In this document: positions 1 to 61,634 of the stretch, piece by piece | Position numbering within the stretch: the stretch's first letter is position 1 | Layout of the letters: each line of letters opens with the position of its first letter | NCBI RefSeq assembly: GCF_000027125.1 | Contig: NC_017626.1 | Strand: one strand, 5' to 3' | From: Escherichia coli 042 | GTDB taxonomy: Bacteria; Pseudomonadota; Gammaproteobacteria; Enterobacterales; Enterobacteriaceae | Length of the DNA: 64,000 nucleotides | Program-made: the position numbers and the translations under genes | Notes under the pieces: generated by a model | Told to the model about the DNA's origin: nothing | Seen by the model: only the letters and a program-made list of their open reading frames with translations | The model's database searches: none

Positions 1-1740
1 ACTATTGGTTATATCGTAGAAACGGAAGGACGTTCAGCAGTCTTATCTGAAAAAGAGAAAAAACTTTCTGCCGTGGTCAACCTGCTTAATCAGGCACTAG
101 GCGATCGCTATGATCTCTACATCGACTTACCACGTGAGGAGCGTATCCGCGCATTAAATGCAGAACTTGCCCCCATTACCGAAAATATCACTCACGCCTT
201 CCCTGGCATCGGCGCTGGTTATTACAACAAAACGCTGGATGCGATAATCACCTACGCGCCTTCAGCGCTATATCAGAATAATGTCGGCGTTACCATTGCC
301 GCAGATCACCCTGGTCGCGAAGTCATGCGTACAAATACCCCTTTGGTTTATTCAGGCAGGCAGGTGCGCGGCGATATTTTGAATTCAATGATCCCCATTG
401 AGCGTAATGGTGAAATCCTCGGCTATATCTGGGCCAATGAATTAACCGAAGATATTCGCCGCCAGGCCTGGAAAATGGATGTGAGGATTATCATTGTGCT
501 CACCGCCGGTTTGCTGATAAGCCTGCTGTTGATTGTCCTTTTCTCCCGTCGCCTGAGCGCCAATATTGATATCATCACCGATGGCCTCTCGACTCTGGCG
601 CAAAATATTCCCACTCGATTACCACAATTGCCCGGTGAAATGGGGCAAATCAGTCAGAGTGTTAACAACCTCGCCCAGGCACTGCGTGAAACGCGGACAC
701 TTAACGATCTGATTATTGAAAACGCTGCCGATGGCGTCATTGCCATTGACCGCCAGGGTGATGTAACCACCATGAACCCGGCAGCAGAAGTCATCACTGG
801 CTATCAACGTCATGAACTGGTAGGGCAGCCTTACTCCATGTTGTTCGACAATACTCAGTTCTACAGTCCAGTACTGGATACGCTGGAACATGGCACCGAA
901 CATGTGGCGCTGGAGATCAGTTTTCCAGGCCGTGACCGCACCATTGAACTCAGTGTCACTACCAGTCGTATTCATAACACGCATGGTGAAATGATAGGTG
1001 CTTTGGTGATTTTCTCTGATTTAACTGCCCGCAAAGAAACCCAGCGCCGCATGGCGCAAGCAGAACGCCTCGCCACACTGGGTGAGCTGATGGCTGGCGT
1101 CGCGCATGAAGTACGTAATCCGCTAACGGCTATTCGTGGTTATGTACAGATCTTGCGCCAACAAACCAGCGACCTAATACATCAGGAATATCTGTCCGTA
1201 GTACTCAAAGAAATCGATTCAATTAACAAAGTTATTCAGCAATTGCTCGAATTTTCACGTCCACGCCACAGTCAATGGCAACAAGTCAGTCTCAATGCAT
1301 TGGTTGAAGAAACTCTGGTACTGGTACAAACCGCCGGCGTACAAGCGCGGGTCGACTTCATAAGCGAACTGGATAATGAATTAAACCCGATTAACGCCGA
1401 TCGTGAACTGCTCAAACAGGTACTACTGAATATCCTGATCAATGCCGTCCAGGCTATCAGCGCACGAGGGAAAATTCGCATTCAAACCTGGCAATACAGC
1501 GACTCACAACAGGCCATTTCGATAGAGGACAACGGCTGTGGCATTGATCTCTCGCTGCAAAAAAAGATCTTCGATCCCTTTTTCACCACCAAAGCCTCTG
1601 GAACCGGGCTTGGTCTGGCGTTAAGTCAACGCATCATTAATGCCCATCAGGGTGATATTCGCGTCGCCAGTTTGCCGGGCTACGGCGCAACCTTCACGCT
1701 TATTTTACCGATCAATCCGCAGGGAAATCAGACTGTATGA
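1..1740 (+). CDS. atoS: Sensor histidine kinase AtoS, 5'-truncated at window edge (reading frame open from base 1)
   Basis: Frame open from position 1; H-box HEVRNPL, G-boxes DNGCGID and GTGLGL; stop overlaps atoC start (ATGA at 1737-1740). Confidence 0.9.
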   Translation, partial: TIGYIVETEGRSAVLSEKEKKLSAVVNLLNQALGDRYDLYIDLPREERIRALNAELAPITENITHAFPGIGAGYYNKTLDAIITYAPSALYQNNVGVTIAADHPGREVMRTNTPLVYSGRQVRGDILNSMIPIERNGEILGYIWANELTEDIRRQAWKMDVRIIIVLTAGLLISLLLIVLFSRRLSANIDIITDGLSTLAQNIPTRLPQLPGEMGQISQSVNNLAQALRETRTLNDLIIENAADGVIAIDRQGDVTTMNPAAEVITGYQRHELVGQPYSMLFDNTQFYSPVLDTLEHGTEHVALEISFPGRDRTIELSVTTSRIHNTHGEMIGALVIFSDLTARKETQRRMAQAERLATLGELMAGVAHEVRNPLTAIRGYVQILRQQTSDLIHQEYLSVVLKEIDSINKVIQQLLEFSRPRHSQWQQVSLNALVEETLVLVQTAGVQARVDFISELDNELNPINADRELLKQVLLNILINAVQAISARGKIRIQTWQYSDSQQAISIEDNGCGIDLSLQKKIFDPFFTTKASGTGLGLALSQRIINAHQGDIRVASLPGYGATFTLILPINPQGNQTV

Positions 1741-3122
1741 CTGCTATTAATCGCATCCTTATTGTGGATGATGAAGATAATGTTCGCCGTATGCTGAGCA
1801 CCGCTTTTGCACTACAAGGATTCGAAACACATTGTGCGAACAACGGACGCACAGCATTACACCTGTTTGCCGATATTCACCCTGACGTGGTGTTGATGGA
1901 TATCCGCATGCCAGAGATGGACGGCATCAAGGCACTCAAGGAGATGCGCAGCCATGAGACACGGACCCCCGTTATTCTGATGACGGCCTATGCTGAAGTG
2001 GAAACCGCCGTCGAAGCGCTACGCTGCGGGGCCTTCGACTATGTTATCAAACCGTTTGATCTCGATGAGTTGAATTTAATCGTTCAGCGCGCTTTACAAC
2101 TCCAGTCAATGAAAAAAGAGATCCGTCATCTGCACCAGGCACTGAGCACCAGCTGGCAATGGGGGCACATTCTCACCAACAGCCCTGCGATGATGGATAT
2201 CTGCAAAGACACCGCCAAAATTGCCCTTTCTCAGGCCAGCGTCTTGATTAGCGGTGAAAGCGGCACCGGGAAAGAGTTGATTGCCAGAGCGATTCACTAC
2301 AATTCGCGGCGGGCAAAGGGGCCGTTCATTAAAGTCAACTGCGCGGCGCTGCCGGAATCGTTGCTCGAAAGTGAACTGTTTGGTCATGAAAAAGGTGCAT
2401 TTACTGGTGCACAAACCTTGCGTCAGGGATTATTTGAACGTGCCAACGAAGGTACTCTGCTCCTCGACGAAATTGGCGAAATGCCGCTCGTACTGCAAGC
2501 CAAATTACTACGCATTCTGCAGGAACGGGAATTTGAACGGATTGGCGGCCATCAGACCATAAAAGTTGATATCCGCATCATTGCTGCCACCAACCGTGAC
2601 TTGCAGGCAATGGTAAAAGAAGGCACCTTCCGTGAAGATCTCTTTTATCGCCTTAACGTTATTCATTTAATACTGCCGCCTCTGCGCGATCGCCGGGAAG
2701 ATATTTCCCTGTTAGCTAATCACTTTTTGCAAAAATTCAGTAGTGAGAATCAGCGCGATATTATCGACATCGATCCGATGGCAATGTCACTGCTTACCGC
2801 CTGGTCATGGCCGGGAAATATTCGAGAGCTTTCCAACGTTATTGAACGCGCCGTCGTGATGAACTCAGGCCCGATCATTTTTTCTGAGGATCTTCCGCCG
2901 CAGATTCGTCAGCCAGTCTGTAATGCTGGCGAGGTAAAAACATCCCCTGTCGGTGAGCGTAATTTAAAAGAGGAAATTAAACGCGTCGAAAAACGCATCA
3001 TTATGGAAGTGCTGGAACAACAAGAAGGAAACCGAACCCGCACTGCTTTAATGCTGGGCATCAGTCGCCGTGCATTGATGTATAAACTCCAGGAATACGG
3101 TATCGATCCGGCGGATGTATAA
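1737..3122 (+). CDS. atoC: Sigma-54-dependent response regulator AtoC
   Basis: Receiver domain (ILIVDDE...D), AAA+ sigma-54 activator motifs GESGTGKE and GAFTGA, C-terminal HTH. Confidence 0.93.
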   Translation: MTAINRILIVDDEDNVRRMLSTAFALQGFETHCANNGRTALHLFADIHPDVVLMDIRMPEMDGIKALKEMRSHETRTPVILMTAYAEVETAVEALRCGAFDYVIKPFDLDELNLIVQRALQLQSMKKEIRHLHQALSTSWQWGHILTNSPAMMDICKDTAKIALSQASVLISGESGTGKELIARAIHYNSRRAKGPFIKVNCAALPESLLESELFGHEKGAFTGAQTLRQGLFERANEGTLLLDEIGEMPLVLQAKLLRILQEREFERIGGHQTIKVDIRIIAATNRDLQAMVKEGTFREDLFYRLNVIHLILPPLRDRREDISLLANHFLQKFSSENQRDIIDIDPMAMSLLTAWSWPGNIRELSNVIERAVVMNSGPIIFSEDLPPQIRQPVCNAGEVKTSPVGERNLKEEIKRVEKRIIMEVLEQQEGNRTRTALMLGISRRALMYKLQEYGIDPADV

Positions 3123-3133
3123 CGCCAAAACTT

Positions 3134-3173
3134 GCTATGCAGAAATTTGCACAGTGCGCAATTTTCTGCATAG
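3134..3173. promoter_or_regulatory. Inverted repeat of two 20-bp half-sites, candidate AtoC enhancer/operator upstream of atoD
   Basis: GCTATGCAGAAATTTGCACA / GTGCGCAATTTTCTGCATAGC near-perfect palindrome about 110 bp upstream of the sigma-54 promoter. Confidence 0.7.
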
Positions 3174-3255
3174 CCGCTCATTCTCCTTATGAATCCCCAT
3201 CTAATTTATCCCTTCATATTCAATTAGTTAAATAACAAAATCCAATAATCTCATT

Positions 3256-3272
3256 CTGGCACTCCCCTTGCT
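3256..3272 (+). promoter_or_regulatory. Sigma-54 (-24/-12) promoter of atoDAEB
   Basis: TGGCAC-N5-TTGCT match to the TGGCAC-N5-TTGCW consensus, about 45 bp upstream of the atoD ATG. Confidence 0.7.
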
Positions 3273-3317
3273 ATTCCATGACTGTACCCACAACGGTGTA
3301 TGCAAGAGGGATAAAAA

Positions 3318-3980
3318 ATGAAAACAAAATTGATGACATTACAAGACGCCACCGGCTTCTTTCGTGACGGCATGACCATCATGGTGGGCGGATTTATGGG
3401 GATTGGCACTCCATCCCGCCTGGTTGAAGCATTACTGGAATCTGGTGTTCGCGACCTGACATTGATAGCCAATGATACCGCGTTTGTTGATACTGGCATC
3501 GGTCCGCTCATCGTCAATGGTCGAGTCCGCAAAGTGATTGCTTCACATATCGGCACCAACCCGGAAACAGGTCGGCGCATGATATCTGGTGAGATGGACG
3601 TCGTTCTGGTGCCGCAAGGTACGCTAATCGAGCAAATTCGCTGTGGTGGAGCTGGACTTGGTGGTTTTCTCACCCCAACGGGTGTCGGCACCGTCGTAGA
3701 GGAAGGCAAACAGACACTGACACTCGACGGTAAAACCTGGCTGCTCGAACGCCCACTGCGCGCCGACCTGGCGCTAATTCGCGCTCATCGTTGCGACACA
3801 CTTGGCAACCTGACCTATCAACTTAGCGCCCGCAACTTTAACCCCCTGATAGCCCTTGCGGCTGATATCACGCTGGTAGAGCCAGATGAACTGGTCGAAA
3901 CCGGCGAGCTGCAACCTGACCATATTGTCACCCCTGGTGCCGTTATCGACCACATCATCGTTTCACAGGAGAGCAAATAA
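3318..3980 (+). CDS. atoD: Acetate/acetoacetyl-CoA transferase alpha subunit
   Basis: 220-aa ORF, CoA-transferase family A, operon position. Confidence 0.92.
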
Positions 3981-4630
3981 TGGATGCGAAACAACGTATT
4001 GCGCGCCGTGTGGCGCAAGAGCTTCGTGATGGTGACATCGTTAACTTAGGGATCGGTTTACCCACAATGGTCGCCAATTATTTACCGGAGGGTATTCATA
4101 TCACTCTGCAATCGGAAAACGGCTTCCTCGGTTTAGGCCCGGTCACGACAGCGCATCCAGATCTGGTGAACGCTGGCGGACAACCGTGCGGTGTTTTACC
4201 CGGTGCAGCCATGTTTGATAGCGCCATGTCATTTGCGCTAATCCGCGGCGGTCATATTGATGCCTGCGTGCTCGGCGGTTTGCAAGTAGACGAAGAAGCA
4301 AACCTCGCGAACTGGGTAGTGCCTGGGAAAATGGTGCCCGGTATGGGTGGCGCGATGGATCTGGTGACCGGGTCGCGCAAAGTGATCATCGCCATGGAAC
4401 ATTGTGCCAAAGATGGTTCAGCAAAAATTTTGCGCCGCTGCACCATGCCACTCACTGCGCAACATGCGGTGCATATGCTGGTTACTGAACTGGCTGTCTT
4501 TCGTTTTATTGACGGCAAAATGTGGCTCACCGAAATTGCCGACGGGTGTGATTTAGCCACCGTGCGTGCCAAAACCGAAGCTCGGTTTGAAGTCGCCGCC
4601 GATCTGAATACGCAACGGGGTGATTTATGA
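3980..4630 (+). CDS. atoA: Acetate/acetoacetyl-CoA transferase beta subunit
   Basis: 216-aa ORF, 1-nt overlap (TAATG) with atoD. Confidence 0.92.
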   Translation: MDAKQRIARRVAQELRDGDIVNLGIGLPTMVANYLPEGIHITLQSENGFLGLGPVTTAHPDLVNAGGQPCGVLPGAAMFDSAMSFALIRGGHIDACVLGGLQVDEEANLANWVVPGKMVPGMGGAMDLVTGSRKVIIAMEHCAKDGSAKILRRCTMPLTAQHAVHMLVTELAVFRFIDGKMWLTEIADGCDLATVRAKTEARFEVAADLNTQRGDL

Positions 4631-5949
4631 TTGGTCGCATATCGCGTTTTATGACGCGTTTTGTCAGCCGGTGGCTTCCCGATCCACTGATCTTTGCCAT
4701 GTTGCTGACATTGCTAACTTTCGTGATCGCGCTTTGGTTAACACCACAAACGCCGATCAGCATGGTGAAAATGTGGGGTGACGGTTTCTGGAACTTGCTG
4801 GCGTTTGGTATGCAGATGGCGCTTATCATCGTTACCGGTCATGCCCTTGCCAGCTCTGCTCCGGTAAAAAGTTTGCTGCGTACTGCCGCCTCCGCCGCAA
4901 AGACGCCCGTACAGGGCGTCATGCTGGTTACTTTCTTCGGTTCAGTCGCTTGTGTCATCAACTGGGGATTTGGTTTGGTTGTCGGCGCAATGTTTGCCCG
5001 TGAAGTCGCACGCCGAGTACCCGGTTCTGATTATCCGTTGCTCATTGCCTGCGCCTACATTGGTTTTCTCACCTGGGGTGGCGGTTTCTCTGGCTCAATG
5101 CCTCTGTTGGCTGCAACACCGGGCAACCCGGTTGAGCATATCGCCGGGCTGATCCCGGTGGGCGATACTCTGTTCAGTGGTTTTAACATTTTCATCACTG
5201 TGGCGTTGATTGTGGTGATGCCATTTATCACCCGCATGATGATGCCAAAACCGTCTGACGTGGTGAGTATCGATCCGAAACTACTCATGGAAGAGGCTGA
5301 TTTCCAAAAGCAGCTACCGAAAGATGCCCCACCATCCGAGCGACTGGAAGAAAGCCGCATTCTGACGTTGATCATCGGCGCACTCGGTATCGCTTACCTT
5401 GCGATGTACTTCAGCGAACATGCCTTCAACATCACCATCAATACCGTCAACCTGATGTTTATGATTGCGGGTCTGCTGCTACATAAAACGCCAATGGCTT
5501 ATATGCGTGCTATCAGCGCGGCAGCACGCAGTACTGCCGGTATTCTGGTGCAATTCCCCTTCTACGCTGGGATCCAACTGATGATGGAGCACTCCGGTCT
5601 GGGCGGACTCATTACCGAATTCTTCATCAATGTTGCGAACAAAGACACCTTCCCGGTAATGACCTTTTTTAGTTCTGCACTGATTAACTTCGCCGTTCCG
5701 TCTGGCGGCGGTCACTGGGTTATTCAGGGACCTTTCGTGATACCCGCAGCCCAGGCGCTGGGCGCTGATCTCGGTAAATCGGTAATGGCGATCGCCTACG
5801 GCGAGCAATGGATGAACATGGCACAACCATTCTGGGCGCTGCCAGCACTGGCAATCGCCGGACTCGGTGTCCGCGACATCATGGGCTATTGCATCACTGC
5901 CCTGCTCTTCTCCGGCGTCATTTTCGTCGTTGGTTTAACGCTGTTCTGA
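4627..5949 (+). CDS. atoE: Short-chain fatty acid transporter
   Basis: 440-aa polytopic membrane protein, ATGA overlap with atoA. Confidence 0.9.
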   Translation: MIGRISRFMTRFVSRWLPDPLIFAMLLTLLTFVIALWLTPQTPISMVKMWGDGFWNLLAFGMQMALIIVTGHALASSAPVKSLLRTAASAAKTPVQGVMLVTFFGSVACVINWGFGLVVGAMFAREVARRVPGSDYPLLIACAYIGFLTWGGGFSGSMPLLAATPGNPVEHIAGLIPVGDTLFSGFNIFITVALIVVMPFITRMMMPKPSDVVSIDPKLLMEEADFQKQLPKDAPPSERLEESRILTLIIGALGIAYLAMYFSEHAFNITINTVNLMFMIAGLLLHKTPMAYMRAISAAARSTAGILVQFPFYAGIQLMMEHSGLGGLITEFFINVANKDTFPVMTFFSSALINFAVPSGGGHWVIQGPFVIPAAQALGADLGKSVMAIAYGEQWMNMAQPFWALPALAIAGLGVRDIMGYCITALLFSGVIFVVGLTLF

Positions 5950-5979
5950 CGGCAACCCTACAGACAGAAGGAATAAAAA

Positions 5980-7164
5980 ATGAAAAATTGTGTCATCGTC
6001 AGTGCGGTACGTACTGCTATCGGTAGTTTTAACGGTTCACTCGCTTCCACCAGCGCCATCGACCTGGGGGCGACAGTAATTAAAGCCGCCATTGAACGTG
6101 CAAAAATCGATTCACTACACATTGATGAAGTGATTATGGGTAACGTGTTGCAAGCCGGGTTGGGGCAAAATCCGGCACGTCAGGCACTGTTAAAAAGCGG
6201 GCTGGCAGAAACGGTGTGCGGATTCACGGTCAATAAAGTGTGTGGTTCGGGTCTTAAAAGTGTGGCGCTTGCCGCCCAGGCAATTCAGGCAGGTCAGGCG
6301 CAAAGCATTGTGGCGGGGGGTATGGAAAATATGAGTTTAGCGCCCTACTTACTCGATGCAAAAGCACGCTCTGGTTATCGTCTTGGAGACGGACAGGTTT
6401 ATGACGTAATCCTGCGCGATGGTCTGATGTGCGCCACCCATGGTTATCATATGGGGATTACCGCCGAGAACGTGGCCAAAGAGTACGGAATTACCCGAGA
6501 AATGCAGGATGAACTGGCGCTACATTCACAGCGTAAAGCGGCAGCCGCAATTGAGTCCGGTGCTTTTACAGCCGAAATCGTCCCGGTAAATGTTGTCACT
6601 CGGAAGAAAACCTTCGTCTTCAGTCAAGACGAATTCCCGAAAACGGATTCTACGACTGAAGCGTTAGGCGCATTGCGCCCGGCCTTCGATAAAGCAGGAA
6701 CAGTCACCGCCGGGAACGCGTCTGGTATTAACGACGGTGCTGCCGCTCTGGTGGTTATGGAAGAATCTGCGGCGCTGGCAGCAGGCCTTACCCCCCTGGC
6801 TCGCATTAAAAGTTATGCCAGCGGTGGCGTGCCCCCCGCATTGATGGGTATGGGGCCAGTACCTGCCACGCAAAAAGCGTTACAACTGGCGGGGCTGCAA
6901 CTGGCGGATATTGATCTCATTGAGGCTAATGAAGCATTTGCCGCGCAGTTCCTTGCCGTTGGGAAAACCCTGGGCTTTGATTCTGAGAAAGTGAATGTCA
7001 ACGGCGGGGCCATCGCGCTCGGGCATCCTATCGGTGCCAGTGGTGCTCGTATTCTGGTCACACTATTACATGCCATGCAGGCACGCGATAAAACGCTGGG
7101 GCTGGCAACACTGTGCATTGGTGGCGGCCAGGGAATTGCGATGGTGATTGAACGGTTGAATTAA
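5980..7164 (+). CDS. atoB: Acetyl-CoA acetyltransferase (thiolase II)
   Basis: 394-aa thiolase; motifs NKVCGSGLK and C-terminal GGGQG. Confidence 0.93.
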
Positions 7165-59967: not shown

Positions 59968-61634
59968 AAATGGCTTACCTGCGCCAGCAGTTGCTGGAGG
60001 GTTTGCGCACCATCGGTGTCGTTAACCACCATTTCAATTACCGTGGTGGTCGGCGTGCGCCAGGCGTCGGCAAGTGCAGTTTCAAGTTCCTGCCAGTTTT
60101 GCGGACGATGATATTTCAGCTCGAACATCGCGGCGGCGTGCTCAAAATGGACGTTTTGCGGCATCAGATAGAAACGCTCGCGCTCGTTTTTCGGCGTTGG
60201 CAACAGCGAGAAAATTTGCCCGCCGTTGTTGTTCACCACAATTAATACCAGCGGCGCGGAAACCTGACGTAATAACGCCAGCGCGTTGAGATCGTAAAGA
60301 GCTGAGAGATCGCCCACAATCGCCAGCGTCGGTTTGCCGCTTGCCCGCTGAACGCCTGCGGCGGTCGAGAGCAGCCCGTCGATACCGCTGGCACCACGGT
60401 TGCTGTACACCGGGTAACCTGCCGGAAGTTGCGAAAGCGCATCAATCAGACGTACCACCAGGCTGTTACCGACAAACAATTGCCCCTGTTCAGGTAGATA
60501 GTCGCTGATGCGATGCGCCAGTAGGGCTTCGCCAAACGCATCGCGACGGGCAATAACCGCCTGCATTGCCTGTTCCGCCAGGCGCGGGATTTCAACGCAC
60601 CAGGGCTGGCGTTTTTCTGCCGGATGTTGCTCCAGCCAGTCGGCAATATTGGCAATTAAGCGACGTCCGCGATGGTGTGCCGGATCAAGTCGCCCTTCAA
60701 TGTCATCAACAATCCAGTACTCTTCGGGTTCACAGCTTGCCTGCCATTGCAGGAGCCGTTTGCCCGTCAGGCTGCTTCCCAGTTGCACCACAATTTGCGC
60801 CTGTTGCAGTTCGCTGATCGCTTTGGCATTGCTTAACCAGAGATCGGCACACGGCAGCGGCTGCCCGGTTTGCGACAGCACATCACCGATCAGCGGCCAG
60901 CCAAGAGTTTGCGCCCACAGTGCAACTTTTTTGCCCTCTTCCGCACTCATGCGCCCGGCAACCACCACGCCGCGCTTTTGCCGCCAGAAGAACCAGTCGC
61001 GCTGTTTTTCACTTTCCAGACGAGGCGCTTCACGCAGCCACGGTTTGTCGTCCTGCCACCAGTCGCCCAGCCGCTGTTGCCAGCTAAGCCCGGTGTCGTC
61101 CATTTCGCCATACAGCGGTTCAGCAAACGGGCAGTTGATATGGACTCCACCAGCATGAAGCGTACCGAGAGCGTGGTCGATGGTAGAAACCAGCCAACGT
61201 GCGGGGATATCCTGGGTCGGGCGCGGCAGTGAAATACTGTGCGTAGGGTGAGAGGCGAACATTCCCGGCTGACGAATCGCCTGATTCGCGCCGCAGTCAA
61301 TTAGCTCCGGCGGGCGATCGGCGGTTAACAGGATCAGTTTTTCTCCGGTTAACCCGGCTTCTATCAGTGCCGGATAGAGATTTGCTACCGCCGTGCCGGA
61401 GGTCACAATCACCGCCACCGGCTGCTTGCTGACTTTCGCCAGCCCCAGCGCCAGATGCCCTAGTCCGCGCTCATCGAAATGGGTGTGGTGAATGAATGCG
61501 GAATTCTCCGCCGCCGCTAACGTTAACGGTGTAGAACGCGAGCCAGGGGCGATACAGATGTGTCTGACGCCGTGACGCGTTAATGCTTCCAGAATGACCG
61601 CCGCCCAGCGTCGGTTAAATGCGCTTACTGACAT
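59964..61634 (-). CDS. menD: SEPHCHC synthase (ThDP-dependent)
   Basis: 556 aa from [22 protein letters not shown] overlap with menH. Confidence 0.94.

Follow-up and report, generated by a model that had tools for sequence, protein, structure and literature searches.

The region between atoC and atoD in the 64-kb window, which is the whole stretch of DNA that was analysed (64,000 nucleotides), is almost certainly the cis-regulatory region of the Escherichia coli atoDAEB operon for short-chain fatty acids (probability of about 0.95); it comprises an enhancer for AtoC, a sigma-54 promoter, and, between the two, a site at which IHF probably bends the DNA. The finding is already known because this region is the atoDp control region itself: the AtoC site and the sigma-54 dependence were published in 2007, a genome-wide map of sigma-54 occupancy followed in 2015, and atoDp is an ordinary enhancer-dependent sigma-54 promoter. 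An earlier note, made from the letters alone, had read an AtoC enhancer and a sigma-54 promoter upstream of atoDAEB, and this first reading was accurate; it is supported by the identities of the genes, by half-sites published as ChIP-positive, by the identity of a 17-mer to the mapped sigma-54 site OS21, and by a phylogenetic footprint. Our analysis adds that the footprint pins the likely IHF site to 3218 to 3230 and shows that the spacing between enhancer and promoter is under constraint. A use for these results lies in the engineering of Pato-based acetoacetate biosensors.

At this locus, atoS and atoC are followed by the control region and then by atoD, atoA, atoE, and atoB. The features are as follows.

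73 to 1740: atoS, an open reading frame cut by the window start (NCBIfam).
1737 to 3122, + strand: atoC, an NtrC-family sigma-54 enhancer-binding response regulator (NCBIfam equivalog NF008469, 1003.7 bits at a cutoff of 714).
3134 to 3174: AtoC operator/upstream activating sequence, inverted half-sites of 20+1+20 with the centre at 3154, approximately −126 to −129 from the predicted start.
3218 to 3230, + strand: putative IHF-like site, ATTCAATTAGTTA, which is WATCAANNNNTTR with 1 mismatch; centre at approximately −57 to −59.
3256 to 3272, + strand: sigma-54 promoter atoDp, CTGGCACTCCCCTTGCT, with the −24 GG at 3258 to 3259 and the −12 GC at 3270 to 3271.
3280 to 3283, + strand: predicted transcription start of atoDAEB, by the rule of Bonocora et al. 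or, presumably, by the footprint attributed to Matta et al.
3282 to 3317, + strand: atoD leader, with the Shine-Dalgarno sequence AGAGGGA at 3305 to 3311 and a probable Spot 42 pairing region.
3318 to 3980, + strand: atoD, acetate CoA-transferase alpha (NCBIfam NF007394, 444.7 bits).
3980 to 4630, + strand: atoA, 3-oxoacid CoA-transferase subunit B (NCBIfam).
4627 to 5949, + strand: atoE, short-chain fatty acid transporter family (TIGR00366).
5980 to 7164, + strand: atoB, acetyl-CoA C-acetyltransferase (thiolase; NCBIfam).
3318 to 7164, + strand: atoD-atoA-atoE-atoB operon (NCBIfam and the RefSeq annotation of K-12).

The AtoS open reading frame listed from 73 covers profile positions 55 to 615 of the 616 in the AtoS model; because the first profile positions are missing and the window opens inside atoS, the true atoS start lies upstream of the window. 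AtoC has the signature of a bEBP, i.e., GAFTGA at residues 220 to 225, ESELFGH at 211, a receiver Asp in LMDIRMPE, and a C-terminal HTH. The locus accordingly encodes its own activator of the NtrC family, in which an AAA+ domain, the GAFTGA motif, and a DNA-binding HTH are all present.

The 401 bp from 3000 to 3400 were matched in 3,924 of 5,426 complete E. coli genomes at 90 to 100% identity with flanks in every case annotated as atoC and atoD, and are 100% identical to the sequence of E. coli strain C4. The atoC-atoD spacer is missing from about 28% of the complete genomes. In strain H10, atoC is annotated merely as an HTH-domain protein, and in strain H15, the match covers the first 65 nt only; together with the count of matched genomes, these cases support that the locus is variably present or decayed in E. 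coli. K-12 MG1655, which belongs to a different E. coli lineage, differs from the window by 6 substitutions in 231 aligned bp, none of which lies within the palindrome, the IHF-like element, or the −24/−12 element, and it has the same intergenic length (195 bp) and the same offsets of the elements from the atoD ATG.

The operator palindrome starts 12 nt past the atoC stop codon. Its arms, GCTATGCAGAAATTTGCACA at 3134 to 3153 and TGCGCAATTTTCTGCATAGC at 3155 to 3174, are complementary at 18 of 20 positions and are separated by 1 nt (G3154). The earlier note had described a 40-bp inverted repeat of two 20-bp half-sites; the repeat is real and its arms are 20 nt long, but it spans 41 bp and there are 2 mismatches between the halves. 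It is the only palindrome in the window with at least 18 of 20 matches and a loop of 0 to 3 nt, and the same class appeared in 0 of 100 first-order Markov simulations (analytic expectation, ~4e-4 per window). When the AtoC half-site was searched at up to 3 mismatches, no further copies were found elsewhere in the window. Pilalis et al. (2011) list as ChIP-positive AtoC sites GCTATGCAGAAATTTGCACA (+ strand, −184 to −165 from the atoD start) and GCTATGCAGAAAATTGCGCA (− strand, −163 to −144) (PMC3118216, Table 5). The half-sites in the window are letter-identical to these, and the offsets agree (3318 − 184 = 3134 and 3318 − 144 = 3174). According to Pilalis et al., who cite Matta et al. (2007) for its experimental verification, including AtoC binding and in vivo ChIP, the 40-bp palindrome controls acetoacetate inducibility and AtoC binding (PMC3118216). 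A Pato-GFP reporter did not respond in atoS−, atoC−, and atoSC− strains (PMC7618054).

The sequence TGGCACTCCCCTTGCT at 3257 to 3272 (+ strand) is a perfect match to TGGCAC-N5-TTGCT, has GG and GC 10 bp apart, and lies 46 bp ahead of the atoD ATG. The distance of about 110 bp from the operator given in the earlier note proved correct when measured from centre to centre (3154 to 3264), the gap from edge to edge being 82 bp; 110 bp is inside the range of 80 to 150 bp for a bEBP enhancer. Exact matches to TGGCAC-N5-TTGCW number 2 in the window compared with 0.13 expected. In the sigma-54 ChIP-seq analysis of Bonocora et al. (2015), site OS21 has the motif CTGGCACTCCCCTTGCT, is assigned to atoD at a distance of 35, and is flagged "C," i.e., experimentally confirmed in EcoCyc (PMC4591121). 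The 17-mer at 3256 to 3272 in the window is identical to this motif. In K-12, the ChIP signal for sigma-54 at atoD was only of modest height (FAT 5) (PMC4591121), and gSELEX with RpoN holoenzyme gave a peak in the spacer between atoC and atoD (PMC8743547). Citing Matta et al. (2007), Pilalis et al. state that the palindrome activates sigma-54-dependent expression and that the operon is sigma-54 dependent (PMC3118216).

The second perfect TGGCAC-N5-TTGCT in the window, at 60389 to 60404 (+ strand), is antisense inside menD. K-12 carries TGGCCC at this position, and a single substitution in the present lineage creates an intragenic sigma-54 consensus. A menD peak is absent from the K-12 sigma-54 ChIP-seq tables (PMC4591121).

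For the phylogenetic footprint, we used a protein-anchored scan with AtoC and one genome per species, which gave six close orthologous loci. These comprise one locus in a divergent Escherichia (L002, 90% amino acid identity) and five in Citrobacter (L003 to L007, 83 to 86%), and the comparison is therefore shallow and covers these two genera only. All six loci have the same layout, with a 20+1+20 palindrome in which 16 to 19 of 20 positions are complementary, followed by the IHF-like element and then the promoter. The orthologous promoters have the form TGGCA(C/T)-N5-(C/T)TGC(A/T), with TGGCA and TTGC reported as invariant in an alignment, and the gap between palindrome and promoter is 82 to 85 bp in all seven distinct loci. 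Mean pairwise identity is 90% in the palindrome (31 of 41 columns invariant, including the central unpaired bases), falls to 47.5% in the first part of the spacer, rises to 72 to 75% in the IHF-like block, falls to 46% in the second part of the spacer, and reaches 79% in the −24/−12 element. This is a classic phylogenetic footprint, in which three islands of conservation keep almost the same distances while the DNA around them is scrambled. The comparison of sequences shows purifying selection on the operator, the IHF-like element, and the −24/−12 element as well as on their spacing.

The stretch between the operator and the promoter had been called AT rich and a possible IHF bending site. The first part holds, with an A+T content of 69.5% over 3175 to 3256 and 77% over 3200 to 3256 compared with 48.5% in the whole window. 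As to the second, WATCAANNNNTTR at up to 1 mismatch gave 57 matches in the window and 53 in shuffles, and a match of this kind also turns up in 18% of shuffled spacers; for this reason the 1-mismatch match at 3218 to 3230 is by itself not significant. The position of the element is what speaks for it: an IHF-like element of the form ATTCAA-N4-TTA lies 44 to 46 bp past the palindrome in all six orthologous loci, and TCAA-N4-TTA is retained in most of them (in Citrobacter werkmanii, CTA replaces TTA). Support for the IHF site is thus only indirect and comes from its conserved position across Escherichia and Citrobacter, not from the E. coli sequence alone. The alternative is that the spacer is bent by the intrinsic curvature of AT tracts or by HU or Fis and that the IHF-like match is coincidental. 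The frequency of such matches in shuffled spacers and the A+T content of 70 to 77% agree with this alternative, and our literature search for atoDAEB together with IHF or footprinting found no relevant report of IHF binding at this site. Matta et al. (2007), however, reportedly described IHF in their abstract as a critical component of induction, and curvature or a coincidental match has to be set against the fact that most orthologues keep TCAA-N4-TTA at a constant distance, although the spacer on either side of it is scrambled (46 to 48% identity). We consider bending without IHF at this site unlikely, though it is the strongest of the alternatives, and retain 3218 to 3230 as the probable IHF site.

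We also considered that the inverted repeat might act mainly or additionally as RNA, i.e., as a stem-loop closing the atoSC mRNA, which would act as a terminator or shield the 3′ end. As RNA, the palindrome, located 12 nt past the atoC stop, is predicted to form a hairpin of −24.3 kcal/mol (z = −4.65), and 0 of 200 shuffles were equally stable. In L002 (2491 to 2531), the left arm carries a G-to-A change and the right arm the mirror C-to-T change, by which complementarity is raised to 19 of 20. This paired change is compensatory and keeps the dyad symmetry of the operator; it also preserves pairing in the RNA. In contrast to what a terminator would need, there is no U-tract after the palindrome (the next bases are CCGCTCATTCTCC), and a terminator scan gave no match at the palindrome; on both grounds, we rejected termination as its main function. 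Moreover, it is the operator sequence itself that is conserved, down to its central unpaired bases, and not complementarity alone, a pattern that fits recognition by a protein, and AtoC has been found by ChIP on these very 20-mers (PMC3118216). A function mainly in RNA therefore seems improbable to us, and the palindrome is better read as the AtoC operator, with an accessory role of the hairpin at the 3′ end of the atoSC mRNA, perhaps in stabilising the transcript, as a possible but secondary addition.

That the palindrome and the −24/−12 match have arisen by chance in AT-rich intergenic DNA, with atoDAEB read from a sigma-70 promoter, can be dismissed as extremely improbable in view of the expectations of ~4e-4 palindromes (0 of 100 simulations) and 0.13 sigma-54 consensus matches per window, the retention of both elements in Citrobacter, and the published binding data (PMC3118216, PMC8743547, PMC4591121). 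A sigma-70 promoter for atoDAEB was rejected as a candidate, since none was predicted over 3000 to 3400.

AtoC is said to protect −146 to −107 in the DNase footprint of Matta et al. (2007), which we take to place +1 at 3280 to 3281. By the rule of Bonocora et al., in which 19 is added to the motif centre (3264), transcription would start at 3283; this leaves 35 bp to the ATG at 3318, in agreement with the distance in their table.

In the comparison of Escherichia with Citrobacter, the atoD leader (3283 to 3317; mean pairwise identity, 87%) is more conserved than the −24/−12 element (79%). The sequence CUGUACCC / CTGTACCC at 3282 to 3289 is the exact complement of nt 4 to 11 of Spot 42 (spf from K-12). 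In restricted duplex calculations, the leader at 3282 to 3289 paired with region I of Spot 42 at −15.7 kcal/mol, and the Shine-Dalgarno region at 3305 to 3314 paired with region II at −8.3 kcal/mol; the duplex energy of the whole Spot 42 molecule with the leader was no better than that of shuffles and carries no information, in contrast to the restricted seed regions. Beisel et al. (2012), as cited in PMC7618054, identified atoD as a target of Spot 42. Because atoD is a published target, Spot 42 probably pairs at 3282 to 3289, starting with what would be the first bases of the mRNA.

Together, these elements suggest the following mechanism. The AtoS kinase, activated by acetoacetate, would phosphorylate AtoC, and AtoC~P would bind the dyad-symmetric site at 3134 to 3174 and assemble into an active AAA+ oligomer. 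Sigma-54 RNA polymerase would wait in a closed complex on CTGGCAC-N5-TTGCT (3256 to 3272), and bending of the AT-rich spacer, most likely by IHF at ATTCAATTAGTTA (3218 to 3230), would loop enhancer-bound AtoC onto the polymerase. ATP hydrolysis and contact by the GAFTGA loop would then open the promoter, with transcription starting at approximately 3280 to 3283. No observation speaks against this reading. For sequences identical to both elements, published experiments show that AtoC binds the palindrome and that sigma-54 occupies the promoter. Our analysis shows the gene content, the anatomy, its non-randomness, and the selective constraint, and from these we infer the exact start site, the assignment of the IHF site, and the geometry of looping.

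Two distant loci, in metagenome-assembled genomes (MAGs) of Nitrospiraceae (L008) and Deltaproteobacteria (L009), encode AtoS together with an AtoC that is 56% identical (721.9 and 713.1 bits, respectively, at a cutoff of 714). TGCGCA-type hexamers lie directly past the atoC stop in both (L008, 3889 to 3930; L009, 3871 to 3912), forming a 14/16 inverted repeat in L009 and having weak dyad symmetry (11/16) in L008. TGGCAT-N5-TTGCT is present at 3992 to 4007 in L008, upstream of atoDA, and at 4019 to 4034 in L009, upstream of an atoE-like transporter gene. Given this similar layout, the regulatory arrangement appears to extend well beyond the Enterobacteria. We tentatively raise the idea, while thinking it more doubtful than not, that the cassette of atoSC, operator, and sigma-54 promoter is an ancient mobile module whose grammar of TGCRCA-type hexamers has been kept from the Enterobacteria to the Nitrospiraceae and Deltaproteobacteria MAGs and to which the E. 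coli region adds a second, post-transcriptional layer through pairing of CUGUACCC with the Spot 42 seed. If this were true, 160 bp would hold an enhancer, a bend, a promoter, and a target for an sRNA, all conserved together.

Among known systems, the closest is atoDp of K-12 (Matta et al. 2007, J Bacteriol 189:6324; Pilalis et al. 2011), which is the same locus and in which the palindrome, the IHF-like element, and the −24/−12 element are base-for-base identical to those in the window. Activators of the NtrC/NifA type have an AAA+ domain with GAFTGA, as does AtoC, and it is well established for this family that, as at atoDp, dyad-symmetric activator sites lie >100 bp upstream of a GG-N10-GC promoter in NtrC/glnAp2 and NifA/nifH. 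At nifH and glnHp2, an IHF-type bend site lies in the AT-rich intervening region, as it putatively does at atoDp. AtoC differs from NtrC and NifA as an activator and in its DNA specificity, with half-sites of 20 bp containing TGCA/TGCRCA hexamers, and atoDp has a single composite palindrome, whereas at glnAp2 there are several sites for NtrC that stand apart from one another. The prpBCDE operon of Salmonella and E. coli is, like ato, an operon for short-chain acyl-CoA catabolism with a dedicated bEBP, and its −24/−12 element, GTGGCACACCCCTTGCT, is similar to that of atoDp, CTGGCACTCCCCTTGCT. IHF and RpoN are required for prpBCDE according to Palacios and Escalante-Semerena (2000), as cited in PMC2965739. 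[quoted passage not shown]
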